Source: an uncultured Nitrososphaeraceae archaeon (GTDB lineage: Archaea; Thermoproteota; Nitrososphaeria; Nitrososphaerales; Nitrososphaeraceae). Taken from it: a stretch of 64,000 nucleotides of DNA. Position numbers and translations under genes: made by a program. Below, piece by piece: positions 804 through 40,099 of the stretch; position 1 is the first letter of the stretch, and every line of letters begins with the position of its first letter. The DNA lies in assembly GCA_963779615.1 (NCBI GenBank), contig CAVZZA010000001.1, positions 608,001 through 672,000 on the forward strand, given 5' to 3'. A model generated the notes under the pieces. It made no database searches. It was not told the origin of the DNA and worked only from the letters and a program-made list of their open reading frames with translations.

Positions 804-1103
804 TTTCTCATCTTTGAATAGCTGATGTGCTGATAGATGGCCTGCAGAATTAAATTCGACGGTGGCCTTACCATCCCTAGTCGATTCTGTCTAAATTGGA
901 AATAAGCGAATCCATATCCACAATATAGAAAGAAAATACTATATGGAATGAGTATACCCATTTGTTTTAAACTCTTATGTGGGTGTTAGCAAGTTAACAA
1001 AACATGCATGAGAATGCGTTCTAGATAAAGCAGCCTGTCAATTTGGAAGAGATTTTTTTGCCTATTATCTTTCTTTTTTCATATGTGCAAAAAATATGAT
1101 TAA

Positions 1104-1772
1104 CTACTTGCAGGAGTGTTTGTCATGGTTTTCGAGTGTGTACAGTGCTGCCAATTTCGTGGCAAGTTCAGCCTTTATGTAGCTTGAATCGTCACCTCCA
1201 ATTATTACTATATCATCATTGAGTGGGTTTAATTTATTTACCAAAAGTTTTATGATTAGGGGCTCATTTTTTAGGGCGTCATAATCGGTATTGACTGTAA
1301 AGAATTTTTCATTTTCATATTTTAGTGTTGTAGCGCCTTTAACTCCCATTTTTATTGCGATATCTCTTTGTTCTATTCCAGAACTAATTTCCATTTTCAT
1401 CTGTCTCAATAAAACCGCGTGATTGAATTTGCCAATTGAAATTGAGCAGTGAGGCACACTTGTTTCAGAACCAATGTGCATGGATATTTTAGTTAAAAAT
1501 GATTTTCCTTTATCAGACATCCTTGTTCCATTGGTAGTTGTTATTATCATGTTTTCCGTTTTTAGGTGTTTTATCAATGTCTTGATCGAACCTTCTCCTA
1601 ATCCAAGTTCTTTGGACAGCAAACTTCTACTTACAGTTTTCTCATCTTCAATTAACTGTAATGCTTTAAACACATGTGCAGGATTAAAGGACAAAATCCT
1701 ACTGGGTGCATATCTGCTGGAAATGCTCTCGAGGGTTTTTACTAAAAGATGCACGATATTATGCCACTGCAA
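1104..1772 (-). CDS. Winged-helix transcriptional regulator-like protein (DUF4443-type C-terminal domain)
   Basis: HTH segment SRSLLSKELGLGEGSIKTLIKHL followed by GIEQRDIAIKMGVKGATTL typical of this archaeal family; directly downstream of cbtA. Confidence 0.7.
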   Translation of the reverse strand: MQWHNIVHLLVKTLESISSRYAPSRILSFNPAHVFKALQLIEDEKTVSRSLLSKELGLGEGSIKTLIKHLKTENMIITTTNGTRMSDKGKSFLTKISMHIGSETSVPHCSISIGKFNHAVLLRQMKMEISSGIEQRDIAIKMGVKGATTLKYENEKFFTVNTDYDALKNEPLIIKLLVNKLNPLNDDIVIIGGDDSSYIKAELATKLAALYTLENHDKHSCK

Positions 1773-1893
1773 ATAAATTTATTTTTATCTTGATGCTTTT
1801 TATTTTTAGAATTATACAAAATTTTATTGCCCGAACACTTTTTGATTATGATGAAAAAATAAACTAAAATATAAAAGATGAGAACACGCAAAA

Positions 1894-2625
1894 TCAAATT
1901 GCGGTTTTTCTGGAAAGCTCATGAGGCCTAAACCTGTACCAAAGCAATCCAAATACAACACCAAGAACCACCCAAAATCCGACCATGGTTAGGCCGCTCG
2001 CGATTCTGAAAGAACTCACCAAGTCCATCGGTATGGTGATTTTGTCGGGGTTGGGTGGGAACAAAGCAAACGCACTGGACATTATCACGGCATAAACCAG
2101 TGGTATGGCTATGCGGATATGGCGTACACCCCTAAACCTGTAAAACAAAACCCCAAGACCCAGGGCAGATACTGCGGATACTGCCAAGAACCCAAGGTAC
2201 AGGCTTTCCCTTAGGTATATGGTGTCCGGGTTTCCAACAGCAGGCGGGTTTCCGGGATACTTGAGGAAAGGGATGACAAACAAAGCCAGGCAGATGACTA
2301 GTGACAGGAAAACCGCCCTCTTGATGTCGCCAGAAAAAGGGAGATAGCTTCTGCCAAAAACATAAACTATGCCAAGGAGGGAGCCAAACGCCATTCCCAA
2401 GATGGAGCCCGCAATGAAACTTCCGGACTTTTGCCATGTCCTGTATGAGTTTTGCTCATTGGTGTCCACACTTTCGCCTGCCGCAACAGCCTTGGAGGTT
2501 TCCAAACCTATGGCTTTGTCGATAAATGGCTCGACAACGATTAAGTTCATGCCGGCCAAAACCACACCAGATATGGCCCCGGAAACAAGAGAGATGAGAA
2601 CAAAGAGCAGCGATTTCAACATCAA
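1894..2625 (-). CDS. cbtA: Cobalt transporter subunit CbtA (copy 1)
   Basis: Multiple TM helices, EPFIDKAIGLE and PFLKYPGNPPAVG motifs; follows a CbtB-type peptide. Confidence 0.9.
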   Translation of the reverse strand: MMLKSLLFVLISLVSGAISGVVLAGMNLIVVEPFIDKAIGLETSKAVAAGESVDTNEQNSYRTWQKSGSFIAGSILGMAFGSLLGIVYVFGRSYLPFSGDIKRAVFLSLVICLALFVIPFLKYPGNPPAVGNPDTIYLRESLYLGFLAVSAVSALGLGVLFYRFRGVRHIRIAIPLVYAVIMSSAFALFPPNPDKITIPMDLVSSFRIASGLTMVGFWVVLGVVFGLLWYRFRPHELSRKTAI

Positions 2626-2674
2626 AATCTACTTTCGATTTCCGTTATTTGAAGAATAAGAATAAAGAAGAAGA

Positions 2675-2890
2675 TTAATGGCAAGGAAAGCCTGCTGCAT
2701 GCCTCATGTCATGAGTAATCTCATGCAAGTATTTCATATCAAATGCCTGATTGCCCTGAACGAGGCTGAAAATTTGCCCTTGATCATAACCTACCACAAA
2801 AATACCAAACACTACAATGGCTGCTAAAAAACCAATGGCCATTTTTGAATTATCATATGTGCTAACAAGGGTTTTATCAAAAGTTGACAT
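2675..2890 (-). CDS. cbtB: Cobalt transporter subunit CbtB (copy 1)
   Basis: One TM helix and C-terminal LHEITHDMRHAAGFPCH signature. Confidence 0.92.
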   Translation of the reverse strand: MSTFDKTLVSTYDNSKMAIGFLAAIVVFGIFVVGYDQGQIFSLVQGNQAFDMKYLHEITHDMRHAAGFPCH

Positions 2891-2912
2891 TAATTCAAAG
2901 TTTTTTGCACTG

Positions 2913-2938
2913 TATATAAATATTTGGATAGTTTATCC
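2913..2938 (-). promoter_or_regulatory. cbtB promoter: TATA box with upstream palindrome GGATA-N3-TATCC
   Basis: TTTATATA about 25-30 nt before the cbtB ATG; palindrome at 2926-2938, near-conserved in copy 2 (33123-33135 GGATAaacCATCC). Confidence 0.55.
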
Positions 2939-3117
2939 GGCTCTGTTCACTTAAGAAAAATTAATTGCCTTTTTTATTGTGAATATAGTAATTAAAAATA
3001 TTTGAAGAGAATTCGGGTTAAACTGTCCTTAATTTATTAAAATTGAATTTTTTGGATTTCAAAAACCATTTCATTTAGACAAATATAAAACAGGTAAATG
3101 CTTAAGTGAACAGAGCC
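2939..3117. mobile_element. 179-bp MITE with IS6-type ends
   Basis: Perfect 17-bp TIR GGCTCTGTTCACTTAAG / CTTAAGTGAACAGAGCC; 8-bp target duplication GTTTATCC (2931-2938, 3118-3125); same TIR as the IS at 15893. Confidence 0.92.
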
Positions 3118-3189
3118 GTTTATCCAATCATACTATTTAAAATAGAAAAAACAATTGATCCGTAACATTGAAAAAAAACATGATCAGCA

Positions 3190-3379
3190 TCACTAAAAAG
3201 ATAATAAAGGAGTGAATTATATGATGCCAACGTCATTTCCAGTGACTGATTCACTCCTTTATTATCTGAGTATTGATTCCAGATTATTTGCGATCCCAAT
3301 GAACTAGGCATATGCAGGATTGGTTTGTAAAGCTCATGCTTGATTTATTGAGTCTACAAAGAGCTATTTTATAGACATG
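3190..3379 (-). ncRNA. Candidate structured small RNA, copy 1
   Basis: Downstream of TATA + operator; perfect 19-bp stem (3199-3217/3249-3267) with inner GUCA/UGAC hairpin; homologous to 9375-9555 and 32708-32895; only a 4-codon ORF at the start. Confidence 0.5.
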
Positions 3380-3413
3380 ATTAGGTAAGCCTAACAAAAA
3401 TATAAACCTGATC
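3372..3413 (-). promoter_or_regulatory. TATA box + DtxR/MntR-type operator TTAGG-N4-CCTAA (copy 1)
   Basis: 42-bp block GATCAGGTTTATATTTTTGTTAGGCTTACCTAATCATGTCTA identical in three places; palindrome at 3381-3394 lies between TATA and the predicted start. Confidence 0.7.
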
Positions 3414-3959
3414 ATGATTTTCTATTGTTATAATAACAATATACTGTGGAGAAGACATTTGAAAAAATTGTTTTTAGATTACCTTCTCCTCGTGATTACA
3501 TCCTTATGATTAAAAGGAACAGTTCAACTAAAAACCGTTTTTTTATGTTGCTTTGTGTGGATGTATGTTAATAATAAAATAGATAGTTTCTGTACTCTTG
3601 ATTTCTTGCTTACAATTGAATTAATTAAAACAAATAACGCTGTACTTAATTACCGAAACCAAACTTTATTCAATTCAACCCTTTTTTAAGGATGAATCCA
3701 AATTCTCAAAGGTGGTTAGCATAGTAAAAGATTTTTCCTTTAACTATTCAAATTTGCAAAATCTAGTCTCAGGTATGGTGGTAAGGTTATATAGGAATTT
3801 GTTATCACCCTTCACAGGCTATTTTTAAGCATAAACATAAAAACAATAGGAGGAAGACACTTTTTTACCTTTTATTGGATTGAGATGGTGTAATTTCTTA
3901 TTGTGTTCTATAGTTGTACAATAATAAATATAAGTTTAAAATACTGAATTGTAGTAAAA

Positions 3960-5717
3960 TTGATGTTTTTCAACACATTCAAAATTTCGACAGCCTTTAT
4001 TATTACTGGTTTGACGATTTTCGGGATTAGTTACCTCCTTCCTGATGGTGCCTTTGGTGATACTGACAGCTCCCTGTTTGCTTATGCAACAACCAATTCC
4101 TCAGGCTCTCTGCAAAATCAGGCAGATGGCGGAAAATCAAGCAACAACAGTTCAGCATCCAATTTTAGCGAAGAGGCCATAATGCATAAAATACAGATGA
4201 TGAGCGCAAAAGAAAAACAATTCCTCTGTGGAAGCAAAACCCAAGGCTCTAGTTACTATGTAAGCGAATTCGTAACTCCTGTGCCATGCAACCATCCGGT
4301 TGGGTTAGTTGCAGACAAAGACAATAACATATGGATAGCGTCTGGTTGGAGTGGGAGTATATTGGTGTTTAATCCCCATTCAAACACCTTTATTAAAACC
4401 ATAAAAATACCCAATTGGCCTCAAAATCAAGGGGAACTTGGCTCAATGATTTGGGAAATGAAATTTGACAAAAATGGTGATTTATGGTTTACGGATGAAA
4501 AAACTAACTCCATATGGAAGTATTTTACCAAAGAGGGAAAGTTTGAAAACTATAAAATACTTGCCAAAGGGGGCTACCCATTATCATTTGTTTTTGACTC
4601 AAACAACAACATATATTTTACTCAGGTATTTGGAAAGAGACTTGGATTCCTTGACCCGTTAAAAGTAGAGAATAATACTACCAAAGGGATTTCGGAATTG
4701 GAGTTATCAAAACAACTAAAATTCGAAACCATGGGTCCAATCTCCAATGGATTTGGATTTACTGATAACACCAAGAATGGCAGTAAAAGCAACACGAATG
4801 AAACAATGTGGTTTTCAACAGTTAGTTTTCCGGTCGGTGGTCAGTTGATTAAATACGACATAACTGAGGGAACTCTTACCATTCATGACTTGACCCATAA
4901 ACACAGTGTCCCAATAAGTGTGGCAGAGGACGATAATGGAACTATCTGGACCAATGACCACGCATCAAGCCTCTTCCTGATGTTGGACCCCAAAACAGGT
5001 TACACAAAAGAATATGCAACCTCTTTCCCGTCAACAGCCAACACAACCACATTGCCCTACTACAACCAATACAGGGATGGAAAGATATGGTTCAACGAAC
5101 ACTATGGAAATGCGATTGCCTCCTATGACATAAAGAACAAAACACTTGTGGAATATCACATACCATCTAAAAATCCACTTTGGGCCAATTCATCAAATCC
5201 TCTCAAATTCACATTTGATAATGATGGTTCCGTATGGTTTACCGAATGGACAGAAAACAAGCTGGGTGTTATACCCAAGGAAAAAATCAACCAATTGCCT
5301 ATTTCGCTATCCACCTCAAAGGATAAGATGAGCATAGATAGCAAAAATGGTAAAGGAGACACAGTTGATGTTAGCATTTATAATAACAAATTGAACGGTA
5401 CTGGCACTAATGGAAACAACAGCAATGCATTTTTGGAAGGTGATGAACCAGGCAAGCCTGCCAACATCACTATGTTTGCAACTTCGTCGATATCCAAGAA
5501 TGGATCATTGTTGAACCTCACAGGTGATTTTGGCAAAGACCGCTTCTTGACAACTGATTTACCGGTATCTACTGCTGGACCTTATCAACCGCACAAAACT
5601 ACTTTAGAAATAAATCCAACCAAGGACATTGTCCCTGGAGATTACACACTGACAATCAGCGCCCGATACAATGATGACATCACTGTTTCAAAAATAATAG
5701 ATTTGGATATCCAATAG
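3960..5717 (+). CDS. Secreted Vgb-lyase-like beta-propeller protein
   Basis: Signal peptide; repeated blades of type D.dG.lWFTE...N.i; C-terminal beta-sandwich-like region. Confidence 0.8.
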   Translation: MMFFNTFKISTAFIITGLTIFGISYLLPDGAFGDTDSSLFAYATTNSSGSLQNQADGGKSSNNSSASNFSEEAIMHKIQMMSAKEKQFLCGSKTQGSSYYVSEFVTPVPCNHPVGLVADKDNNIWIASGWSGSILVFNPHSNTFIKTIKIPNWPQNQGELGSMIWEMKFDKNGDLWFTDEKTNSIWKYFTKEGKFENYKILAKGGYPLSFVFDSNNNIYFTQVFGKRLGFLDPLKVENNTTKGISELELSKQLKFETMGPISNGFGFTDNTKNGSKSNTNETMWFSTVSFPVGGQLIKYDITEGTLTIHDLTHKHSVPISVAEDDNGTIWTNDHASSLFLMLDPKTGYTKEYATSFPSTANTTTLPYYNQYRDGKIWFNEHYGNAIASYDIKNKTLVEYHIPSKNPLWANSSNPLKFTFDNDGSVWFTEWTENKLGVIPKEKINQLPISLSTSKDKMSIDSKNGKGDTVDVSIYNNKLNGTGTNGNNSNAFLEGDEPGKPANITMFATSSISKNGSLLNLTGDFGKDRFLTTDLPVSTAGPYQPHKTTLEINPTKDIVPGDYTLTISARYNDDITVSKIIDLDIQ

Positions 5718-6100
5718 CCGCACATAATATTTTTTTTCTCTCTGTTTGCATTTTTAAGAAAAATAATCAACTGCTCATTCAATTCTTTTTTTTTCTTCTT
5801 CGCTTATGATGGTTAACCTGCGGTACTAGAATCGGATGTCTGGCTATTAGCAGGATTGTGTCGCGTTTGCCTGTGCATGTGAGAAAATGCTGTTTGAAAA
5901 TAACAGTAATAGAATCGTAGTTGGACTAATGGCATGAAAATCGGGCAATGATTTATTTTTGGAATGCTTACTGATTATGTGAAAGCACAAAAAATTATCC
6001 AGATAACCTTTTCTTAATTAATAAGATGATAAAATGATTTTTTTAATTGAAATGGTGTTATATGATAAAGGGGTTTACCAAGAGAATGCTTTCAATTCCC

Positions 6101-6444
6101 CTAGTCCTTAAACTTTTGCCAGAGTCTAACAATTTTTTCTCCAACTGGTTTTTGCTTTACACTAATGAAATAGAATTGTTTTTATAACTTATGCTTACCT
6201 CATGAACCCATCGAGTGTAAAAAGACTCGTCCATCCCTTCTGCTCTCCTTATAATTTTTGTTTTCTTGATAATGCCAAGTTGTTCCAGTCCAGTCACTTT
6301 TCTATAGGTAGATGATGATGGCATGTCCAATAAAGTGGATATTTTTTGTATACTCAATTCTTTTCCATCCAGCAATTCAATTATTGTCAGGCTTGTTTCG
6401 TTGGAAAGAATAAGCAAAATATCCTTTGCGTATGAATTCGTCAA
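6101..6444 (-). CDS. ArsR-like winged-helix regulator, apparently frameshifted near 6160
   Basis: HTH SIQKISTLLDMPSSSTYRKVTGLEQLGII; another frame continues VKQKPVGEKIVRLWQKFKD* to 6101; start overlaps the upstream gene's stop. Confidence 0.75.
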
Positions 6445-6713
6445 CTTTTAAGGACAGCTAAAATTACTAACACAAAGCCAAAAATTTCAAAAACTTCTTC
6501 ACCCATTCTCCGATTAGTATCGTCTAAAAAGCTGCTGTCTGCAAAGCCTATAAAATCTCCCATTATTGTATCCCCAATGGTTATAAGAGCGAAGCCAAAT
6601 GTTAGGTAAAGCATTGGAACATATTTGGTCTTTTTAAAAGCCTTGGCTGTAAGATAAACCAAAAGAGCTCCCACAATGATATGGATTGAAATTACTATGG
6701 GATAAATATTCAT
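6441..6713 (-). CDS. Small three-TM membrane protein coupled to the wHTH gene
   Basis: Hydrophobic helices, KAFKKTKYVPMLYLTFGFALI; similar to 13563-13922. Confidence 0.75.
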   Translation of the reverse strand: MNIYPIVISIHIIVGALLVYLTAKAFKKTKYVPMLYLTFGFALITIGDTIMGDFIGFADSSFLDDTNRRMGEEVFEIFGFVLVILAVLKS

Positions 6714-6891
6714 CTTTGTATTAGGATTCTGGTTGGATTACATTTTCACTAAACTATATGAAAAACTAAAATGATATCCTCAACCCATTTAAGTCAAACA
6801 AAATATAAAGGATTACCAAATTAATGACTCCTATTATCATTTACTGAGAATAGAGCTATATTTTTTATATCAATTGAATAAAGTAAATTAA

Positions 6892-7677
6892 ATGACATTA
6901 CCGAAAACTAACCTATCAAATACATTTTACTTAATAATGGCGATTACCACATTTACAATTCTTTTGCAATCCATGACATCTGTTAATGATATTGCATTTG
7001 CACAAGTAAGCAACCAACAGCCAAACATCAATGCCCAGAGTCTTTTCAACACCCAAGCAATGACATTGGGAAACAATGTGAAGAACCTTGTGATACTCAT
7101 ACCCAATGAGGGACACCATGGCCCCAATGAAGCCAGTGAAGCCAGGTTCCTGGAACCGTCATTTGTCCCTGCAAATGCGGTGATAAACACTGGAACCACA
7201 GTAGCATGGTATAATGGTGATTTCGGTCACGAACGTACGGTAAACGTAAAAGACGCAACCGGCAGCTCGGTTGTATTTAGCACCGGGGCAATAATAGACA
7301 ATCAGGCATCAAAAACATACACATTCAACACTCCCGGAACCTACAGTTATGAGGCAATTGGCGACGCGGGTTACATAATGAAGGGCACCATAACTGTCAA
7401 AAACATTCAATCCCCTGTAACCTCACCCGCTGCTGCTGGTGGAATAGACACAGTGGGGGTATTGATGGTTCCAACACAAGACTTAAACAAATACATGCAG
7501 GACATCAAGAATGCCGGTTTAACTGTCGACAGCGGGCATAACTTCAAAGACCTAAGGGGAGGTCAGAGCGGAACAGGAGACGTGCAGACACTCTTGGTGT
7601 GGGCCTCAGGCGGCAAGGATTTGAATACCGCGATTGCGCCCCTAAGCCAGCTATCGTTAACCTTACCATACAGTTAA
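6892..7677 (+). CDS. Secreted cupredoxin-like protein, IPxEGHH family (paralogue 1)
   Basis: Signal peptide; NLVILIPNEGHH; cupredoxin-like strands (GTTVAWYN, FNTPGTYSY, MKGTITV) without the type-1 Cys. Confidence 0.8.
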   Translation: MTLPKTNLSNTFYLIMAITTFTILLQSMTSVNDIAFAQVSNQQPNINAQSLFNTQAMTLGNNVKNLVILIPNEGHHGPNEASEARFLEPSFVPANAVINTGTTVAWYNGDFGHERTVNVKDATGSSVVFSTGAIIDNQASKTYTFNTPGTYSYEAIGDAGYIMKGTITVKNIQSPVTSPAAAGGIDTVGVLMVPTQDLNKYMQDIKNAGLTVDSGHNFKDLRGGQSGTGDVQTLLVWASGGKDLNTAIAPLSQLSLTLPYS

Positions 7678-7724
7678 TAGCGTCTTTTTCTTATTTTCCA
7701 AGTCAATTTAATACCCCACTTCTC

Positions 7725-8120
7725 CATTATGGGAGTATGATGTGGTAACCTTACAAAATTCCCTCGTATGAAAGATGGTGACACGAAGTTGTTGATCCAG
7801 GTTTGGGGAATGGTATAGATGTGTTCCTGGCTGCAAATGTTGTCAAGGAAAACTGAAAGTTCTGGAGTGGATGTGACGGATAAAATGTTAGATAAAGCAA
7901 GGGACAATGGTGAAAAATATAATTACAAAATGTTGATTTTGGACAAGGATACATTGAAGAAAAAATACCAGGAGAGGATAACAGTGTGGATATTGTTACA
8001 AGTAATTGTGTGATCAATCTTGCATCAAGCAAGGTAAATGCATTCAAGGAGGTTTACTGAATCCTAAAACCAAACGGAAATGGTAAAATGGTTATCAGAT
8101 CTAGTCACGGATAAATGGGT
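7725..8120 (+). pseudogene. arsM: Arsenite methyltransferase-like pseudogene fragment
   Basis: Across frames: CGNL, VVDPGLGNGIDVFLAAN, GVDVTDKMLDKARDN, SVDIVTSNCVINLA..K..AFKEVY*ILKPNG; several stops and frameshifts. Confidence 0.75.
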
Positions 8121-8214
8121 AGCAGATACAGGTGGGCTCACGATTTTAACAAACTCTGCCTTGTCCAAAACAATGTTTATTTCACTGATGGTTTGCTTGA
8201 TTTACTCCACTGGT

Positions 8215-8560
8215 GCGTTACCGTCTATCTGTGTCCTAGTTTTTCCATTAACAGTGATTATTCATGGTCTGACAACTCTTTGCCTATTGGCTGCTCAATG
8301 TGCTCAAAATTGTCCAAATAGGCTGCTGTTGCCCACTCTTCGGCCTTGGTCGAGTCATTGGTCGAGTATGATGCGATTACCTGATCAAGCAGTGATCTTA
8401 TGTTGATATTTGGCCTTGGGTGCTTTTTTCATCAGATGCTGTATTGTTTGCTTGGGCAAATGATGATGATGCAGTATTGCCTATCACTAAAGATATGGCG
8501 GCCACAACAATTGCGACAAATGCTTTGTTTCCTTGCTGAATGTTTGTAAGCATTTTTTGA
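8215..8560 (-). pseudogene. Internally deleted copy of the secreted protein at 30514-31605
   Basis: 8215-8400 matches 30600-30770 and 8440-8560 matches 31485-31605 at DNA level. Confidence 0.8.
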
Positions 8561-8853
8561 ATTTTTTCTTCAACATTATTCAGCAATTATAAAAATGCGT
8601 TATAGAAAGAAGCATTGCGAACTTTGTTGAATTTCAGTTTTATTTAATTATTTTACTGGTTACTATCGGGGCATATATCTATTCCCAAGAAAGAGAATGT
8701 CAAATACCTCCTAAATTGAAATGTCGCTACCAGAACACTAAACAGTGTATGGTGGGCATCTATGGCATTAGAGAATATACTATCCTAACTATTTTATGGA
8801 AAGATCTGACAAAATCAACTTATGGATGAACATGGTAAAACAATTATACCTGA

Positions 8854-9064
8854 ATGAATGGAACTTTGTTTTGCCATGTTATGCTGCTTATTGTAGGAGT
8901 CTTGGCCTTTGCCTTAAAGGATTCTCAGAAAAGTAATGCTTCCACAGATAGCTATAACCCGGATAACCCAAATGATTCGCCATTCTGTTTACCGTTGATT
9001 CCGATGCTGCAGATCAGTCAGACGATGGAGATTATCAGTCAGACGGTGACATACCATTCCCATA
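8854..9064 (+). pseudogene. Frameshifted copy of the small secreted acidic protein at 32169-32402
   Basis: Near-identical N-terminus; frame lost at about 8995 relative to the paralogue's DDGDYQSDGDIPFP end. Confidence 0.6.
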
Positions 9065-9339
9065 ACGTATTTCCGCCTCTAAATATTAAAAAAATACTAT
9101 AAAAAATTTAATCCATTTCTTTTCCTTTTTAAAATACCAAAATGATTCACCATGTCAGGTTTTATAAATAAAATTGAATGTTTGTAAAAATTTGAGAAGA
9201 TCTTTCTTCAATTGCAGCCTTAAATTCAGGCGTTGCATTCAACTTTTATTGTAACGTCAACAGGAACAAGATCTTCTGGAGAAACAATTACCCTCCTACG
9301 ATCTTTATTTATGATGTTATTTTAACAACGGAGAATCAT

Positions 9340-9381
9340 GATCAGGTTTATATTTTTGTTAGGCTTACCTAATCATGTCTA
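9340..9381 (+). promoter_or_regulatory. TATA box + TTAGG-N4-CCTAA operator (copy 2)
   Basis: Identical 42-bp block; palindrome at 9359-9372. Confidence 0.7.
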
Positions 9382-9555
9382 AAATAACAAACTAGACACA
9401 AAAAATAGGCGCAATCTAATACACATCAAATCCTGGGTAAGTCATAAACACTGGAACATAGTCAACTGGGACTCATATTCACGATAATAAAGGAGTAAAC
9501 GTTATTGGGGATGACATTGGCATTCTTACCATCACTCCTTTATTGTCTCTTTAAT
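9375..9555 (+). ncRNA. Candidate structured small RNA, copy 2 (no downstream gene)
   Basis: 14-bp stem 9483-9496/9534-9547 with one U.G pair; inner GUUA/UGAC stem. Confidence 0.45.
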
Positions 9556-9877
9556 ACTAATATCTATCGTTACTCAACGATAGATATTTTATTTTTTTTT
9601 CACTATATTTACGGATAAATGGACATACTATCCATTCTTAATATGAGAAAATATCATTGAGAGAACCATGCAGTACATCAAAGGCAGAACAAAATATTAT
9701 GATGATTAATACCCGGTAAAAAAATCTCAAACTAAATCAAATGCAAAATTGGCTAATCATATGTTTGATTCCACATCAAGGAATTAGAAACTTTTTAGCG
9801 TAAGGAAATCATTTACAAAATAACTAATAAAAAATGAGCAAAAGAATAGGAAGAAGAAGTTTTTCTTATCTGTTCTT

Positions 9878-11584
9878 CTAATTGTTCTGGTCGTTCTGGT
9901 CTTCCTGGTCGTTCTGGTCTTCCTGGTCTTCTGGTCCTTTCACGTGGATTTCTCCAACCATGGAAGGATGGTAGACACAATAGTATGGGAAAGTGCCGGG
10001 TATGTCAAACACCAAGCTATAGTGCTGGCCCGTCAGAATCGCATTTGAGTCAAACAGGCTTCCCTCATCCGTATCTTCACCCGTTCCCGAAGTTACGGTA
10101 TGGGAGGCTATGTCCCCATTAAACCATGTAACCGTTTGCCCAACATCAATTTCAATTGGGTCTGGAGAATAGGAATTGCTGCCATCAATCCCTACAATTA
10201 TTGCCTTTGTGGAATTGGCCGGCGGTGCCATATTTGAAACATCGGTGATATTAGAAGAGACCGGTTTTTTTACCTCCGCTTTGGCTTGTGACTTTGGCAG
10301 GATTTTATAGAGATCCCCGTGATAGCCCAAAACATAAAGGTACCCGTCTGGGCCAACCTTCATATCGGTAATCCCACCAAACCCCTGGCCAAATATTATT
10401 GGCTGGTTCTCAGGGGGCGTGTCAGCCTGGTTGTCGGACAATGCCTCAAAGTCACCCACATAGGTGTTGTTGGTGATTTCAATGTCCTCCCTATCGTCAC
10501 TCAGGGTGAATCTGTACAGATACCCGTTGTTGATGTCACCTGTGAACATGTTGTTTTCATACTCTTTGCCAAGCTTGTCCGAGTTCAGGAACTTAACCGC
10601 GGTGGGACCGACTGTTGTTTTCCAAACGAATTTTGGGTCACTGTACTCACTATTTCCCAAGGTAACAAGATCGCTGTCTGAAAACCCGGTCTGCAAAAGG
10701 TCATCGTCGGCATATCCCTGAATCAGGGACCAACCGCCATTAAACCCCGGTTTGATCAGGTTAACTTCATCCCCCGTGTCGGGACCGTTCTCTGTGTCCC
10801 ACAGGTTTCCTGTTACCGGGTCAAAATCCATGCCAAAACTGTTGCGGATTCCTATCCCATAATACAGGCTCAACGGCAAATCCTCACCAAAAATCGGATC
10901 CCCTGGCACAACCTTGCCATCCTGGGTCATTCTCAGCACTCCACCCACACCGTTGGCCTCAGGCCCTGTGGCATTGTTTTGGGTGATGGTCCTATGTCCA
11001 CCAACCTCGCCAACAATCACATACACATTGTTATCGGGCCCTATCACAACCTTACCACCATTGTGTTCCGCCCTGCCATTAACTGGAATTGCGGTTAAAT
11101 CCAAAAGAAGCACAGGGTTAAACAGCTGTCCATCCTTGTACTCATATCTGTACAGCCTGTTGCCCAATGGATCAATGTTGGTTGTTGCAGGGGAATCACT
11201 CCCATCCAGATTGTTTCCAGACTCGGTATAATACAGAAAAACATAGGTTTTGCCAGTATCGTTGTGCTTGGATACGGCCATGCCAAGCAATCCCCGCTCA
11301 ATCTGGTTAGCCACAGCAAGATCAAGCACAGGTATGTTTCTTTGAATGTCACCGTTAAATATCCTATAAACGATGCCAGTGTTTTTTTCTGTCACAAGAA
11401 TGTCATTGGGACCTACAAAAGCCATACTTGTTGGGGCCTTTAATCCTCCTGCTATTTTCACAACTGCGAGGTTTGGGTCATTGACCGAAGGGCCAGTGGG
11501 TAATGCTGGCGCTTTTACATAAGCACCAAATGAAAAATATACGGGTAAAACAACCGACATTGATAGTACACCAAAAAAGAACAT
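9878..11584 (-). CDS. PQQ-dependent sugar/aldose dehydrogenase-like propeller fused to a C-terminal type-1 copper cupredoxin
   Basis: ERGLLG, HNGG, GIRNSFG, ENGP..GDEVN motifs; C-terminal SHTVT...YYCVYHPSMVG. Confidence 0.88.
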   Translation of the reverse strand: MFFFGVLSMSVVLPVYFSFGAYVKAPALPTGPSVNDPNLAVVKIAGGLKAPTSMAFVGPNDILVTEKNTGIVYRIFNGDIQRNIPVLDLAVANQIERGLLGMAVSKHNDTGKTYVFLYYTESGNNLDGSDSPATTNIDPLGNRLYRYEYKDGQLFNPVLLLDLTAIPVNGRAEHNGGKVVIGPDNNVYVIVGEVGGHRTITQNNATGPEANGVGGVLRMTQDGKVVPGDPIFGEDLPLSLYYGIGIRNSFGMDFDPVTGNLWDTENGPDTGDEVNLIKPGFNGGWSLIQGYADDDLLQTGFSDSDLVTLGNSEYSDPKFVWKTTVGPTAVKFLNSDKLGKEYENNMFTGDINNGYLYRFTLSDDREDIEITNNTYVGDFEALSDNQADTPPENQPIIFGQGFGGITDMKVGPDGYLYVLGYHGDLYKILPKSQAKAEVKKPVSSNITDVSNMAPPANSTKAIIVGIDGSNSYSPDPIEIDVGQTVTWFNGDIASHTVTSGTGEDTDEGSLFDSNAILTGQHYSLVFDIPGTFPYYCVYHPSMVGEIHVKGPEDQEDQNDQEDQNDQNN

Positions 11585-11694
11585 AACAAAGGTTAATGAA
11601 ATTTTTATATAGAACGCCTCTCAAAATACTAAAATAATATTCTATAACCTTTAATAAAATAAATAAAAAATTGGTACATGCCAGTTTTGTCTAA

Positions 11695-12501
11695 TTATTT
11701 GTAAGGCAGTGATTCAAGTATTGGGAAAAGCTTTGGGATTGCTTGGCCAATTGGTGCTGAGGTTGAGTAAATAATCAAAGAGTTAGGTCCATTGATATCT
11801 TTTTGCACCGTTTTATCAACGAAATCATATGATGAGAGAACATTAAACCCTGCTTTTGCAAAGTCTGACTTGTATTTTTCAAGCGATGGGGTGGGAACAA
11901 AGAGGCCTCCCACCACCAAATTCCCTGCGGATTTTACATTGTTGGATACTGTTATTGTGCCTTTCATGTCAGGGTATTTTTCATCTTTCACATCATATTT
12001 TCCTGCAGGCAATACCTTGGCGTCAGAACCACCAGGATGCTCCACAGGAGTTGTTTGCCATGCAACAGTGCCACTGCTTGAATCTGTTACTGTTCCTACA
12101 TGGACATGCCCAGGATCGCCATGAACATAGGCTATTGACGCGCCAGATGGAACCACAAGATTGCTTGGCACATAAGACGGGTTCTTTAAGCTGATTGTCT
12201 TTTGGTCAACTAGTGGATGATGGCCTTCATCAGGAATTGAAATGATGGCACCACTTACAGTTGATGGTAATGCCATTGTTCCTGTTTCATAGACTGATTG
12301 TGCAGACGGGATTCCACCACCATTATTATTATTGTTAGGACCATTGGTGTTTATTCCCTGTGCATTTACATTAGCGAAACCATTCGACACTATCAACAGG
12401 GCAACAGCCAAGATAGCAATAAACAAAGAAGGAATAATCGTTTTAATTTTCAAATTTATCACATCCATGTCCCATTTTAACCTAAATTGACAGTGATGCA
12501 T
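11695..12501 (-). CDS. Secreted cupredoxin-like protein, IPxEGHH family (paralogue 2)
   Basis: IISIPDEGHH, GDPGHVH, MKGTITV, VGGLFVPT, C-terminal LPYK; true start probably downstream of the ORF-track start. Confidence 0.8.
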   Translation of the reverse strand: MHHCQFRLKWDMDVINLKIKTIIPSLFIAILAVALLIVSNGFANVNAQGINTNGPNNNNNGGGIPSAQSVYETGTMALPSTVSGAIISIPDEGHHPLVDQKTISLKNPSYVPSNLVVPSGASIAYVHGDPGHVHVGTVTDSSSGTVAWQTTPVEHPGGSDAKVLPAGKYDVKDEKYPDMKGTITVSNNVKSAGNLVVGGLFVPTPSLEKYKSDFAKAGFNVLSSYDFVDKTVQKDINGPNSLIIYSTSAPIGQAIPKLFPILESLPYK

Positions 12502-13001
12502 TTCCGAATAAAAGGAGTAACATTAGCATATTTTGATAGTGTTTGCTCGTCATTGTTTTTATGCTTTTGAGTTTTTTTAATTTTTGGAATGTAGTCGTAG
12601 TGTTTGTTTTTGCATCCATAGATTTTTTATAATGGCTCGCATATTAAGTAATTTGGTACAAGTGACTAAACAACAGCAACAATTTATTGCAAACAATATA
12701 ATTTCATTTAGATGCTTGTACTATCATAAATCAGCATCAAACTGCATTCTTTATAGCAAACTGTTTGGTAATAAGGATTTATTATATTTAAGTAAAAATA
12801 TGAGAGAAATTTCCTTCGGTTCACGCAGCCAACATCCGAATTACAAATTTAATGACCTTTTATAGTACATTGAATGATAAAGTTTTAGTACACAAATTAA
12901 CCCTTCAATATTGGTGAACTAGGGCTATCTCTTTCCATAAAATTCTAATACGCGCAGAGATATTGAATACTGCATAGATTTTGTAGATTGGGGTTTGTTA
13001 T

Positions 13002-14697: not shown

Positions 14698-15355
14698 CAG
14701 AAAGAATATAAATAATTGCCTAATAAGTAATCTGATACAAGTGACTAATTATTGGTAAAATTTTATTGCCATTAATCAGTTTTCATTTAGGTGATTGTAC
14801 TATTGCCAATAGGTGTATGTTAAATGTATTGTTGCTATTTGTTATAATTATTTTAAACATTAAACCAAAAATACTTCAACAGTTTATAGTGAATGTGTTA
14901 ATTTACTTGAGTGGTAACAACGGGAGGCTGCAACCTCGGTGAACATGAAAGATAATATGCAAAGGCAAAGGCATCCAAACATTTCGCCAACATGAACAAT
15001 TTGGCGCTGTTCTTCAACTGACAATGCTTAATTATCCGTGTAGTATATTTGTTCGTTTGGTATGCATCTAAAACAATGCGTGAATTGGTTTGATAAAACA
15101 ATACAGTCTTTTGGAAAATCCCAAGCCCTTTATATAAACACAATTCATGGTCATTGTGTTCCAAAGATGTTCTTTTACGGGTTCATGATGGATAGACCGT
15201 CTTCATCTATATCTTTTTTTGCAAAGTTGGCAGCCCCAACTTTTCTGATAATACAAGTATACAAATGAAACGAAATTATTTAGCAAAAAATTTTTGCTGT
15301 TGTTTAGTCACTTGTATCAGATTACTTAATTATGTGGAGGGGCTAAAAATTTAGT

Positions 15356-30513: not shown

Positions 30514-31605
30514 TTAACTGCCTGAAACCCTTAACAAATTACCCGCCTTGTCTAAAACTGTGTTTATTTCACTAATGGTTTGCTTGATTTCCTCCACTGA
30601 TGCGTTACTGTCTATCTGTGTCCTTAGTTTTTCCCTTAACAGTGATTCTCCCTGGTCTGACAACTCTTTGCCTATTGGTTTTTCCAAATATTCAAAATTG
30701 TCCAAATAGGCTGTTGTTGCTAGTTCTTTGGCCTTTATTGAATCATTAGCTGAGTATGCTAATGTCACTTGATTAAGTAATGACCTTATATTAGAGATAT
30801 AATCCACAGAACTTTCATTAGTTGATGTTGGTGTATATGGAGTAGCAGATGATTTTGATAGTTCGGCATTAATTTCATTAATTATTGAATTTATTTCAGA
30901 TGGGTTTTTTTGCTGCTGAACAGAATTGGTTAAGTTGTTAAACAGTGTAGAAATTGTCTCCCTTTCATTTGCTATCGATTTTGTGTCGTTGAATATCTTG
31001 TGGGCCCTGTCCATAAATGCTGACCCGTCTTGGTACTCAAGTATTAGTGTGATTTTGCCATCCTTTACGCCCTCTTCATACTCCCCTTCTGACGTTGTCA
31101 GCAGATCCTGGATTACGGCGATATTGTGGTCTGTGCTGTTCAGTGTTGTTGCAGGTACGACAGTAGCTATGACTTTGTTTGACATGTCAACTGAACTCTG
31201 TGCCTGTTTGCTAAACTCTTCTTTTGTGCTGTTGTTAGGTCCTGTGGGTGATACTAGGTTTGATAATAAATAAAGGTCACTGGTGTACAACTCATTTAGT
31301 TTTGAATCAGTATTGTTTAATGGTATGGCTATAAGTGATAAAACCTCCTCTATTGGATGGCTTGTGTGATTATATGCCAATGTATTGTTGTCGATGTTTT
31401 TGTTGTATACTGCCTTTTCAATATGGCCTATTATCTGCTCGATGTTTGAATGAAACTTTACATACTCGGTTCCATTACCCTGGGTATTGTTTGCCTGGGC
31501 AAATGATGATTGTGATGGTGATATGGTATTGCATATCACTAAAGTTATGGCAGCCACAACAATTGCGATAAATGCCTTATTTCCTAATTGAATGTTTATA
31601 AGCAT
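30514..31605 (-). CDS. Secreted helical protein resembling the extracellular region of FTR1/PbrT-type metal permeases
   Basis: Signal peptide; EQIIGH, HTSHPIEE, EYEEG, EYQDG, ELATTAYLDNFEYLE. Confidence 0.65.
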   Translation of the reverse strand: MLINIQLGNKAFIAIVVAAITLVICNTISPSQSSFAQANNTQGNGTEYVKFHSNIEQIIGHIEKAVYNKNIDNNTLAYNHTSHPIEEVLSLIAIPLNNTDSKLNELYTSDLYLLSNLVSPTGPNNSTKEEFSKQAQSSVDMSNKVIATVVPATTLNSTDHNIAVIQDLLTTSEGEYEEGVKDGKITLILEYQDGSAFMDRAHKIFNDTKSIANERETISTLFNNLTNSVQQQKNPSEINSIINEINAELSKSSATPYTPTSTNESSVDYISNIRSLLNQVTLAYSANDSIKAKELATTAYLDNFEYLEKPIGKELSDQGESLLREKLRTQIDSNASVEEIKQTISEINTVLDKAGNLLRVSGS

Positions 31606-32168
31606 GTTTTGGGTTTTTCTTTGAAAATCTATTTAATCCATTATCCGATTCTCCATTTAGAGAATACTTGGTAGAATATTATTTTCTTTTTTTTGGTTGT
31701 CTGTGGTTGAATGTTTTTTAATTCATTGAACATGTGATGTTTGTTTTCTTGTTGCCCTTAACACACACACTTAAAATTAAACCTATTGTTACTAACATGT
31801 TGTTAAATAAAGCATCCATACTAAAGATACGAACTATTAATGAAATAAATATACACATACATAATTAAGTTTCTAACGTTTACTACAAAATTATTCAGCA
31901 ATTGCAAAAATGCATTATTGAAATAAGCATCGCGAACTTTGATTGAATTTCAGTTTTATTTGATTATTTTACTGGATACTACGGGTTATATATCTATTCC
32001 CAAGAAAGAGAATATCAAATATCCCCTAAATTGAAATATCGTTACTAGCAAACTAAACAGTATATGGTGAGCATCTGTTGTGTTATAGAACATACTATCC
32101 TAACTATTTTACAGAAAGATCTGACAAAATCAACTTATAGATGAATATGGTAAAACAATTATACCTGA

Positions 32169-32402
32169 ATGAATGGAACTTTGTTTTGCCATGTTATGCT
32201 GCTTATTGTAGGAGTCTTGGCCTTTGCCTTAGAGGATTCTCAGAAAAGTAATGCTTCCACAGATAGCTATAACCCAGATAACCCAAACGATTCGCCATTC
32301 TCTTTACCATTTGATTCAGGTGTTGCAGATCAGTCAGACGATGGAGATTATCAGTCAGACGATGGAGATTATCAGTCAGACGGTGACATACCATTCCCAT
32401 AA
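32169..32402 (+). CDS. Small secreted acidic protein with DDGDYQS (21-bp) repeats
   Basis: Signal-like N-terminus, Asp-rich tail; paralogue at 8854. Confidence 0.6.
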   Translation: MNGTLFCHVMLLIVGVLAFALEDSQKSNASTDSYNPDNPNDSPFSLPFDSGVADQSDDGDYQSDDGDYQSDGDIPFP

Positions 32403-32672
32403 CGTATTTCCGCCTCTAAATATTAAAAAAATACTATAAAAAATTTAATCCATTTCTTTTCCTTTTTAAAATACCCAAACGATTCGCCATGTCAGGTTTT
32501 ATTAACAAAATTGAATGTCTATAAAAATTCTAGGAAATTTTTCTTTTAACTGTGTTATTAAATTTAGCAGTCATATCAACTTCTATTGAAAATCAATAGG
32601 AAAAATATCTTATGGAGAAACAATACTATCTTGTGTATATTTTGTAATGATATTTTAACAATAGAGAATCAC

Positions 32673-32714
32673 GATCAGGTTTATATTTTTGTTAGGCTTA
32701 CCTAATCATGTCTA
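32673..32714 (+). promoter_or_regulatory. TATA box + TTAGG-N4-CCTAA operator (copy 3)
   Basis: Identical 42-bp block; palindrome at 32692-32705. Confidence 0.7.
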
Positions 32715-32895
32715 TTAAATAACCCTATAGACACAAAAAAATAGGCGCAGTCTACTACCATTCAAGTCCTGGGTATGTCATATACATCGACCTCATTTGT
32801 CATCTGGAAAACTTGCAAGCACGACAATAAAGGAGTGAGTCAGTCACTGGAAATGACATTGGCATTCTTACCATCACTCCTTTATTGTCTCTTTG
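32708..32895 (+). ncRNA. Candidate structured small RNA, copy 3
   Basis: Perfect 16-bp stem 32823-32838/32874-32889 with a C-G pair replacing the U-A of copy 1; inner GUCA/UGAC stem. Confidence 0.5.
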
Positions 32896-33170
32896 ATACT
32901 AATACCTGTCATTGAGTAACAATAGGTTTTTTGTTCTTTATTCTCACCTCATATGTACGGATAAATAATTCAAAGCCTTTTCTTTTTTTTATGATTAAAA
33001 ATAGTTTAAAATTTTGACTTTATCTTTAGATGACTAATAATTATTGTTATAATAAGGATCTAAGAATCAATTATGTGCAATGTGTTCTTTTCAAAAGATA
33101 TTTGATTTTATAATACTTAGCTGGATAAACCATCCAACAATTTATATACAGTGCAAAAAACTTTGAATTA

Positions 33171-33386
33171 ATGTCAACTTTTGATAAAACCCTTGTTAGC
33201 ACATATGATAATTCAAAAATGGCCATTGGTTTTTTAGCAGCCATTGTAGTGTTTGGTATTTTTGTGGTAGGTTATGATCAAGGGCAAATTTTCAGCCTCG
33301 TTCAGGGCAATCAGGCATTTGATATGAAATACTTGCATGAGATTACTCATGACATGAGGCATGCAGCAGGCTTTCCTTGCCATTAG
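33171..33386 (+). CDS. cbtB: Cobalt transporter subunit CbtB (copy 2)
   Basis: Protein identical to 2675-2890. Confidence 0.92.
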   Translation: MSTFDKTLVSTYDNSKMAIGFLAAIVVFGIFVVGYDQGQIFSLVQGNQAFDMKYLHEITHDMRHAAGFPCH

Positions 33387-39855: not shown

Positions 39856-40006
39856 AATTTTGTACCCTTATCAAATTTTCACATCATTATTGATAAACTT
39901 TCTTAAAATTTTACTGTCCGTTTATTATATGGAAGACAAAGGAATCAACTGTCGTTTATGAACAAATACACTAAAACTTGGGGTAAAAAAGCGTTCATTA
40001 TAGAAG

Positions 40007-40099
40007 CGGGCCCGGTGGGATTCGAACCCACGACAGCCGGATTTCTTTCCATTTCTTTAGTTAAAAGTCCGGTACTCTACCTGGCTGAGCTACGGGCCC
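40007..40099 (-). tRNA. tRNA-Lys(UUU) with 19-nt intron at 37/38
   Basis: GGGCCCG acceptor stem, anticodon stem CCGGA/TCCGG around CTTTTA-intron-A, T arm GTGGGTTCGAATCCCAC. Confidence 0.95.

Follow-up and report, generated by a model that had tools for sequence, protein, structure and literature searches.

What is the role of a 42-bp sequence that recurs, letter for letter, at three places in an archaeal genome, each time in front of a reading frame of only a few codons? The question is raised by a stretch of 64,000 nucleotides (nt) from an uncultured Nitrososphaeraceae archaeon (assembly GCA_963779615.1, contig CAVZZA010000001.1, positions 608,001 to 672,000). We refer to this whole stretch as the window; it is G000:C1:608001-672000, where G000 is the 5-contig assembly of this genome. 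The organism, a soil archaeon, is an ammonia oxidizer, since archaeal amoA (390.6 bits) is found in the same genome. An earlier reading made from the letters alone, the sequence-only reading, had taken the three repeats for copies of a metal-repressed small RNA (sRNA) or of a regulatory leader. We find that the repeat belongs to the promoter-like part of a family of conserved, structured elements with seven full copies in this genome. On balance we favor the view that these are free-standing noncoding RNA genes, some 190 nt in length (about 230 nt at most), under iron repression of the DtxR type. That the RNAs act in trans by pairing with one specific target, the mRNA of an 86-amino-acid (aa) protein, is a more tentative proposal.

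The repeat belongs to a family of structured elements

The identical run lies at 3372-3413 on the minus strand (copy A) and at 9340-9381 (copy B) and 32673-32714 (copy C) on the plus strand, as had been reported. It is made up of GATCAGG, TTTATA, TTTTTG, TTAGG-CTTA-CCTAA, TC, ATG, and TCTA. The tiny reading frames that begin at the ATG and soon stop are also present as described, MSIK* in A and C and MSKITN* in B. So is the long stem, at RNA positions of about 110 to 180, with arms GA(U/C)AAUAAAGGAGU ... ACUCCUUUAUU(A/G)UC that lie at 3253-3266/3200-3213 in A, 9483-9496/9534-9547 in B, and 32823-32836/32876-32889 in C. One outer pair of this stem reads U-A, U.G, and C-G across the three copies. 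The accompanying statement that the neighboring DNA has diverged needs narrowing. B and C are inside a longer segmental duplication of about 1.4 to 2.4 kb (8158-9601 versus 30545-32943), and its upstream part is 92% identical, compared with about 80% in the element. Likewise, the cbtBA gene cassettes that follow A and C are 98 to 99% identical, whereas between the elements themselves, A and C, identity is about 75%.

The count of three also had to be revised. The genome contains seven full copies, of which three (A to C) fall within the window, three (D, E, and F) at C1:689-696 kb, and one (G) on C4. Besides these there are a variant (H, at C4:108026) that joins the family promoter to a different transcribed part, and a decayed promoter module (G000:C1:685887-685931, the remnant at C1:685927) that has kept the upstream block and a TATA-like stretch and lost the palindrome. 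The full unit runs in the order upstream block, TATA box, palindrome, 5′ hairpin, A-rich linker, core, long 3′ hairpin, and U-rich tail, and the alignable part of the paralogs extends from about -60 to about +250.

To describe the distribution of the family, we built a covariance model from 14 copies and searched 34 genomes of the genus. The family is present in 10 of them, with 1 to 8 matches each, and the search found none in the single-contig genomes G001, G032, and G043. Outside the genus, 130 genomes of the same taxonomic family gave one weak match (E = 9.5e-4). The genome sets are samples, and several genomes are incomplete. We aligned 35 matches, 34 of which are full length; the 35th is the opposite strand of the copy F hairpin. 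In a tree of these sequences, the copies of each other genome are scattered over at least five clades, each common to several genomes, which suggests that several paralogs have persisted across speciation. In this genome, all seven copies cluster together with weak support (56/83), and it appears that the copy set has been expanded or homogenized.

The transcribed part looks noncoding and structured. Its 5′ hairpin has 6 to 9 bp and begins at RNA base 3. The core that follows is conserved and mostly unpaired, and it reads CCAAAUCC, 5 to 6 nt, AUGUCAUA, and then CACUGG and CUGG. The long 3′ hairpin has a stem of 11 to 19 bp in every copy, centered on an invariant AAAGGAG/CUCCUUU; in copies B, C, D, and G, there is a further hairpin with a T-run. 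The predicted folds of copy A (-50.8 kcal/mol, z score of -3.9) and copy B (-49.7 kcal/mol, z score of -4.5) are more stable than those of all 200 shuffled sequences. When the two helices were examined in the 35-row alignment, 96.6% of 588 cells paired; in slid controls, with the partner shifted by 1 to 3 columns, 34 to 52% did so. Changes on both sides occur in 7 of the 17 pairs, and none of 500 column shuffles reached any of five measures. The alignment was fitted to the model's own structure, which favors that structure; the same two helices were also obtained by independent MAFFT/RNAalifold analysis of 14 copies and in every single-sequence fold. The covarying hairpin proposed from three copies is thus borne out among the homologs of the family, and compensatory changes are found in both hairpins.

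We then considered whether the elements encode a protein. The first codon is ATG in 23 of the 34 copies and GTG or TTG in 4, and in 7 there is no start codon at all. These startless copies keep the same downstream nucleotides, which argues that the hairpin, and not a peptide, is what is conserved. Within the loop of the 3′ hairpin, 9 of the 34 copies have no ATG open reading frame (ORF) of at least 8 aa, and the loop ORFs of the other 25 occupy three frames relative to the 3′ arm (14, 7, and 4 copies). Across the 34 copies, no intact conserved ORF begins at the ATG. Rfam offers no known relative: at gathering thresholds, a scan of the whole window returned tRNA only, leaving RyhB, PrrF, IsrR, and the cobalamin and NiCo riboswitches unmatched, and permissive scans of copies A and C gave matches at chance level only (E > 2).

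A candidate DtxR-type operator in the promoter

The promoter-like part is conserved in a way that suggests regulation by a DNA-binding protein. Its TTTATAT, at -28 to -22, is present in 30 of the 34 copies. The palindrome TTAGG-N4-CCTAA, at -16 to -3, is exact in 26 and has at most one mismatch in 30. The half-sites are fixed and the 4-nt spacer is free, taking 14 forms in the 34 copies, as one would expect of a palindrome bound by a protein. The site lies between TTTATAT and the conserved first base, the predicted start of transcription, so a bound repressor would block transcription. Farther upstream, at about -58 to -37, is a block, TTATTATAACAATAGAGAATCA, whose function our model does not explain. 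We searched the genome for its 18-nt consensus, allowing up to 3 mismatches. The close matches are the family promoters and the one decayed remnant, and the remaining matches do not stand before a TATA box or operator.

Where else does the palindrome occur? The genome has 12 sites, versus 3.6 expected from base composition and 4 for a reversed control pattern. Seven of them are the RNA promoters. One directly follows the TATA box of a gene for an 815-aa iron permease of the FTR1/EfeU family (Pfam, 72.9 bits). Two more are in tandem, 3 nt apart, between TTTAAATA and the abutting ATG of a gene for a 134-aa winged-helix-like (wHTH) protein, which is followed by a gene for a 130-aa DtxR-family protein (Fe_dep_repr_C, 7e-20). 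The two remaining sites are at C1:363423 and C3:71685, the latter within a rhodanese ORF. Across the genus, the raw count of palindromes is not above the control; it is their positions, not their number, that are conserved. The tandem site and the wHTH-DtxR operon are conserved in G001, G043, and G032, all of which lack the RNA, and this indicates that the regulon is older than the RNA family. Fixed half-sites, free spacers, a spacing that matches the motif of the haloarchaeal regulator TroR, and sites at the FTR1/EfeU and wHTH-DtxR genes all support the earlier suggestion that the palindrome is an operator for a DtxR-family protein.

Two DtxR-family paralogs are encoded in this genome. The 130-aa protein (G000:C1:702294-702686) is divergent and falls below all NCBIfam equivalog cutoffs. 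The other is an MntR equivalog (150.7 bits versus a cutoff of 138), and no palindrome is near its gene. Since a separate MntR equivalog exists, and since cbtB has its own promoter without the palindrome, iron is likelier than manganese or cobalt to be the metal. The sequence-only reading had left the metal open; we keep the proposed repression by metal and take iron as the most likely signal, with metal specificity and repressor binding both being predictions.

A candidate mRNA target

In looking for a target, we scanned the genome for sequences complementary to the two most strongly conserved unpaired motifs, with the two in the right order. The match was the start of an ORF for a His-rich protein of 86 aa (G000:C1:696164-696424, outside the window), on the strand opposite to copy D, 470 nt upstream of that copy and about 7 kb from the wHTH-DtxR operon. 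A conserved TTTAATA at -33 implies that transcription would start a few bases ahead of the ATG and give a nearly leaderless mRNA. The complementarity spans the start codon and the first eight codons: AUGACAU-UACCCAAG-GGAUUCGG of the mRNA is antiparallel to CCAAAUCC-UGGGU-AUGUCAU of the RNA, the partner motifs (core/mRNA) being AUGUCAU/AUGACAU and CCAAAUCC/GGAUUUGG.

How specific is this match? Using RNAduplex, we compared a short core with the starts (windows -7 to +35) of 4,477 ATG-first ORFs of at least 70 codons. The 86-aa gene ranked 1st for copies D (-25.6 kcal/mol) and E (-27.0 kcal/mol), 2nd for B, 4th for C, and 59th for G, and by mean z score over C, D, G, E, and B it was first (-4.16). 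The other top-ranked starts (L7Ae, a glyoxalase fragment, a PNPOx-like protein, and a GMC oxidoreductase) share no common theme. The comparison could be repeated for 20 copies from other genomes, namely those with an ortholog 5′ end in the same genome, with seven others left out. Fourteen of the 20 pair with the 5′ end of their own ortholog, and only 0 to 12 of 1,500 background windows do better (z scores of -2.8 to -5.9).

The 86-aa gene is present in 31 of the 34 genus genomes, at 84 to 94% identity and always about 7 kb from the tandem operator. Public data contain 331 clusters of homologs, all unnamed, and those with a taxonomic label are mostly from Nitrososphaeraceae. The protein has invariant His, Asp, and Glu residues. 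It matches no Pfam or NCBIfam family and has no usable match in the ESM Atlas, and its AlphaFold2 model (predicted local distance difference test score of 53.6) does not have the quality that a fold search requires. In a short paralog, the N-terminal 16 residues are missing and, with them, the pairing site.

From these sequences, we infer transcription from the TATA box, binding of a repressor, an iron signal, and pairing and its effect in vivo. The mechanism would be as follows. When iron is sufficient, the divergent DtxR-family protein would occupy TTAGG-N4-CCTAA and shut off the promoters. When iron is scarce, the seven paralogous RNAs would be made, and their unpaired core (CCAAAUCC ... 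AUGUCAU) would pair with codons 1 to 8, at the extreme 5′ end of the nearly leaderless 86-aa mRNA. Pairing would lower the translation or stability of this mRNA and perhaps of others too. The two hairpins, the long 3′ one together with its U-run, would serve to stabilize and terminate the RNA.

The loop of the 3′ hairpin may be connected with this pairing. Many copies carry the loop motif (A/G)AUGACAUUGGCAU, for example, at 9505-9520 and 32850-32865. This motif differs little from the 5′ end of the candidate target mRNA and is complementary to the RNA's own core; the loop sequence ..AUGACAUUGG.. copies that 5′ end. A pseudoknot between core AUGUCAU and loop AUGACAU was not supported: although 76.9% of cells pair, against 26 to 60% in slid controls, this value is matched by 138 of 500 shuffles, and no surplus of covariation is seen. 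It is possible that the loop is a self-pairing element or a mimic, although covariation lends this no support. Taking these elements together, one may speculate that a sub-clade of Nitrososphaeraceae evolved its own RyhB-like circuit, in which the 86-aa protein, conserved across the Nitrososphaeraceae, would be an unrecognized iron-dependent or iron-handling protein and the loop AUGACAUUGG would be a built-in competitor for the core.

Several points weigh against the proposed mechanism. The candidate target ranks only 1060th for copy A and 757th for copy F, whose cores differ, and the core columns were picked with the hit already known. A longer core (alignment columns 70 to 152) puts the target only 46th of 4,477, and G-rich windows dominate. 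Random windows of the genome paired as well as the target in 2, 0, and 4 cases per 30,000 for D, E, and B, respectively, so equally good sites are expected elsewhere in the genome by chance. Six of the 20 copies from other genomes pair weakly or not at all: one gives a marginal result (51 of 1,500), and the other five, which are divergent, do not pair. Because related sequences are not independent, the support is smaller than the conserved complementarity makes it seem. No function is known for the 86-aa protein, which leaves the logic of iron sparing unproven. The MntR equivalog may be an alternative binder of the palindrome, and our model does not account for the sequence invariance of AAAGGAG/CUCCUUU. 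Lastly, 24 sequencing runs were listed as sharing words with the query, each to a small extent, and we compared contigs assembled from four RNA runs, one from each of four soil studies, with positions 1000-12000 of the window at 90% likeness. They cover cbtBA, the GSDH gene near copy B, and others. The bin 2835-3201 has a depth of 0.39 and 1.92 in two runs, and the bins 3202-3568 and 9441-9807 have zero depth in all four runs; contigs cannot show absence, and this coverage speaks neither for nor against the RNA.

Alternative explanations

An unlikely but not negligible alternative is that the RNA is iron repressed and acts through its invariant AAAGGAG/CUCCUUU stem, as a decoy or platform for a protein or the ribosome, or acts on other mRNAs. 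The AAAGGAG/CUCCUUU sequence is conserved beyond what pairing needs, while adjacent stem positions vary with compensation, and its 3′ arm resembles, by eye, the 3′ end of this genome's 16S rRNA. The existence of target-grade sites elsewhere in the genome would fit an action on other mRNAs. Both arms are, however, locked in a stem of 11 to 19 bp in every copy. The sequence-only reading had suggested that the AAGGAG of this stem acts on ribosome-binding sites, which we could not corroborate: outside the family, only 18 of 202 TAAAGGAG sites stand before an ORF at Shine-Dalgarno spacing, and none of these is obviously iron related. A blastn-short search of the genome with the seven RNAs yielded only 11- to 17-nt matches to stem arms or A-runs and no long antisense partner at another locus. 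Action through the stem would also leave the conserved unpaired CCAAAUCC and AUGUCAU unexplained.

It is improbable, in our view, that the elements are cis-acting leaders or upstream promoters whose read-through places cbtBA (copies A and C) or a Dps-like gene (copy D) under metal control. The arrangement in this genome does suggest it. Copies A and C lie upstream of cbtB and cbtA (Pfam CbtB, 2.3e-10; CbtA, about 1e-47), as noted before, and a same-strand ORF is found 90 to 750 nt downstream of 6 of the 7 copies. Copy D is followed on the same strand, at a distance of about 730 nt, by a Dps-like ferritin-fold gene (G000:C1:694265-694750, L010:18265-18750, minus strand; Pfam Ferritin, 7e-18; archaeal DPS models below cutoff). 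Other genomes show a different picture. For 27 copies there, the nearest downstream ORF is convergent in 19 cases and on the same strand in 5 (152 to 857 nt away), and the locus has none in 3 (neighbor orientations are from crude ORF calls). The neighbors are unrelated to one another: a P-type ATPase, TrkH, an ABC permease, an MFS transporter, a carbonic anhydrase, and several transposases. Since the neighbors vary and no ORF is conserved, the linkage to cbtBA appears incidental, and the earlier idea of a regulatory leader for cbtBA finds no support.

Details of the cbtBA loci argue in the same direction. As the sequence-only reading stated, cbtB has a TATA box of its own, TTTATATA, about 30 nt before the ATG, and there is no TTAGG-N4-CCTAA there. 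The identity of the two cassettes includes 52 nt upstream of cbtB and excludes the element. Between copy A and cbtB is an insert like a miniature inverted-repeat transposable element (MITE), a 39-nt inverted-repeat pair at 2917-2955/3101-3139 that encloses about 145 nt. Behind the 3′ hairpin comes a U-run, with another terminator-like hairpin in copy B, and Rfam gives no riboswitch match. Copy B had been described as having no downstream gene; a convergent GSDH-cupredoxin gene faces it.

We also give little credence to the notion that these are duplicated promoter cassettes with no RNA function, either remnants of segmental duplication near insertion sequences (IS) or an array of operators that buffers free repressor. 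The family is dispersed and restricted to a clade, transposase genes stand beside several copies, and IS-end or MITE-like repeats flank some. One copy is decayed and one is a promoter-only variant, and B and C are in a larger duplication. Against this, the transcribed part is also conserved over the 34 copies, with compensatory changes in two helices, and distinct paralog clades are retained across genomes. No consistent terminal inverted or direct repeats bound the seven copies. For the best inverted match of each copy, 8 of 200 shuffles were as good for A and 70 to 200 for the others, none of which is significant. The elements thus do not look like members of a MITE or other mobile-element family, and a set of RNA genes remains our preferred reading.

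Finally, a very small protein, encoded by a leaderless ORF of 4 to 11 codons at the start or by a loop ORF of 10 to 40 codons behind AAGGAG, is highly improbable: the ATG is at leaderless spacing in the 23 copies that have it, the variable third positions are synonymous in the seven copies of this genome (MSIK in 6 of 7), and several loop ORFs read M-[TV]-L-A-F.., yet startless copies keep their downstream nucleotides, the peptide varies among clades (MSIK, MSVNMRHRHK, and MFVIQNPS), copy B has a 2-nt deletion, and the loop ORF, where present, shifts frame and starts 13 to 42 nt after GGAG.

Feature map, neighboring sequences, and other observations

The features of the three window copies are collected in Table 1.

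Table 1. Predicted features of the three RNA elements in the window
Feature	Position	Strand	Basis or remark
Copy A, conserved upstream block (about -58 to -37)	3415..3436	-	Conserved in the 34 copies
Copy A, TATA box TTTATAT (-28 to -22)	3400..3406	-	Promoter role predicted from archaeal promoter geometry
Copy A, TTAGGCTTACCTAA palindrome (-16 to -3), candidate DtxR/TroR-type operator	3381..3394	-	TroR-motif spacing
Copy A, predicted RNA body	3185..3378	-	Covariance-model match, 157.1 bits; fold z score, -3.89
Copy A, 5′ hairpin GUCUA..UAGAC	3352..3376	-	
Copy A, unpaired core, divergent variant (CCAAUCC..AUGCCUA)	3305..3324	-	Poor pairing with candidate target
Copy A, long 3′ hairpin (GAUAAUAAAGGAGU ... 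ACUCCUUUAUUAUC), then U-rich tail	3200..3266	-	
Copy B, conserved upstream block	9317..9338	+	
Copy B, TATA box	9347..9353	+	
Copy B, TTAGGCTTACCTAA candidate operator	9359..9372	+	
Copy B, predicted RNA body	9375..9562	+	160.5 bits; fold z score, -4.50
Copy B, 5′ hairpin	9377..9397	+	
Copy B, unpaired core (..CAAAUCCUGGGUAAGUCAUA), complementary to 5′ end of mRNA for 86-aa protein	9421..9446	+	-22.4 kcal/mol
Copy B, long 3′ hairpin	9483..9547	+	
Copy B, second hairpin (13 bp) and T-run, terminator-like	9559..9600	+	Hairpin 9559-9588, then TTATTTTTTT
Copy C, conserved upstream block	32650..32671	+	
Copy C, TATA box	32680..32686	+	
Copy C, TTAGGCTTACCTAA candidate operator	32692..32705	+	
Copy C, predicted RNA body	32708..32904	+	179.7 bits
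Copy C, 5′ hairpin	32710..32732	+	
Copy C, unpaired core	32756..32782	+	-21.2 kcal/mol
Copy C, long 3′ hairpin	32823..32889	+	

Variant H (L013:8026-8160 = G000:C4:108026-108160; also L023 = G103:C70) represents a second RNA type. It has the upstream block, the TATA box, a slightly degenerate palindrome, and a 5′ hairpin, GUCUACA..UGUAGA, like that of the family. Its body is different, about 100 nt long, with a GC-rich hairpin of its own and a U-run. From this layout, H may be a second small RNA within the regulon.

Repeats of another kind adjoin some of the elements. The end motif of the inverted repeat beside copy A, GGCTCTGTTCACTTAA, recurs after H and after an RNA copy in G103 (L013:8270-8295, L030:1797-1850), and in G103 it runs on into sequence that is also found at 15903-15943/38146-38186 of the window. 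The motif probably marks the end of an insertion sequence with a tendency to insert next to these RNA genes. Within the duplication that contains B and C, small upstream ORFs (8854-9102 and 32169-32402) encode a repeated DQSDDGDY-type motif and are 92% identical.

The cbtB promoters (2890-2945 and 33119-33171) appear to be near leaderless and carry a small palindrome, GGATAAAC(T/C)ATCC, before TTTATATA. The heptamer GGATAAA is also found in copies A, B, and C, some 60 nt beyond the 3′ hairpin. This may be the site of another regulator, perhaps one that responds to cobalt or B12.

Elsewhere in the window, a tRNA-Val gene (anticodon AAC as reported; 40006-40099, minus strand) is 94 nt long against a model of 71 positions and so probably carries an intron. 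Perfect tandem repeats at 51406-51621 and 45563-45724 (18 nt, nine times, QQGSPQ type, and 27 nt, five times, rich in Gly, Ser, Asp, Arg, and Tyr) probably lie inside coding sequence. A dispersed repeat of about 50 to 97 nt, in direct and inverted orientation (12628-12724, 14707-14803, and 15280-15330), is unrelated to the sRNA family. In the wider genome, three identical 16S rRNA 3′ ends on contigs C1, C4, and C5 reflect either three rRNA operons or redundancy in the assembly; to our knowledge, three operons would be unusual for this archaeal group.

Comparison with known systems

The closest parallel to the proposed operator is in Haloferax volcanii. According to the main text of the TroR study, chromatin immunoprecipitation sequencing of this DtxR-family regulator gave the motif TTTAGGC-NNN-CCTAAAANAN, often doubled per promoter and close to the TATA box; TroR is needed to repress iron uptake in replete iron, and it activates the iron storage gene dpsA (PMC10783522). 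The half-sites and the 4-nt gap are the same here, and a Dps-like gene is found downstream of copy D. The two cases differ in that Haloferax is a euryarchaeon and that the term "sRNA" occurs 0 times in the main text of that paper. The candidate regulator here is also a divergent protein of 130 aa, and with its scores below the equivalog cutoffs it is a possible rather than an established ortholog of TroR. The actinobacterial DtxR/IdeR consensus is TTAGGTTAGCCTAACCTAA, a 19-bp site at which the repressor occludes RNA polymerase (PMC7762939). It shares the terminal half-sites TTAGG and CCTAA with the palindrome described here. Its outer half-sites are, however, 9 nt apart, whereas the site here is 14 bp long with a 4-nt gap, as in haloarchaeal TroR.

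A second archaeal case is MDR1 of Archaeoglobus fulgidus, reportedly a DtxR-family repressor whose operators overlap the start site and which blocks recruitment of polymerase but not binding of TBP and TFB. The reported position of its operators between TATA box and start resembles the layout here, and it differs in reportedly controlling its own operon, which includes an ABC metal transporter, and no RNA gene. Archaeal sRNAs that pair with mRNAs are represented by sRNA162 of Methanosarcina mazei and by s479 and SHOxi of Haloferax, of which s479 is linked to zinc transport. None of these is known to have a metalloregulator operator, to be multicopy, or to come from an ammonia oxidizer, and by the negative Rfam scans they have no sequence relation to the family described here.

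In bacteria, iron starvation sRNAs include RyhB (controlled by Fur), PrrF1 and PrrF2, FsrA, and IsrR. The RNAs described here are probably an archaeal counterpart of these. They are similar in being small and noncoding, in having a candidate iron repressor operator in the promoter, and in their predicted pairing at a translation start; like PrrF, they exist in several near-identical copies. They show no sequence or structure homology to the bacterial RNAs (no Rfam match), have a DtxR-type rather than a Fur-type operator and an archaeal TATA promoter, and lack an Hfq context. The predicted target site is a nearly leaderless 5′ end and not a Shine-Dalgarno site.

In searches of the open-access main-text literature, we found no such RNA in ammonia-oxidizing archaea, no archaeal sRNA under a DtxR-family operator, and no account of RNA-level metal regulation in ammonia-oxidizing archaea. 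Iron supply is thought to constrain these organisms. An sRNA controlled by a metalloregulator is well known from bacteria; what would be new here is that it is archaeal, under a DtxR/TroR-type operator, multicopy, unrelated in sequence, and predicted to act on a leaderless 5′ end. TTAGG-N4-CCTAA can serve as a marker of the regulon, which would comprise an iron permease gene, the regulator operon, and several RNA genes. If the predicted target is true, it gives a physiological context to the conserved protein family of 331 clusters, and the RNAs are a candidate for the first case of posttranscriptional iron control in archaea.

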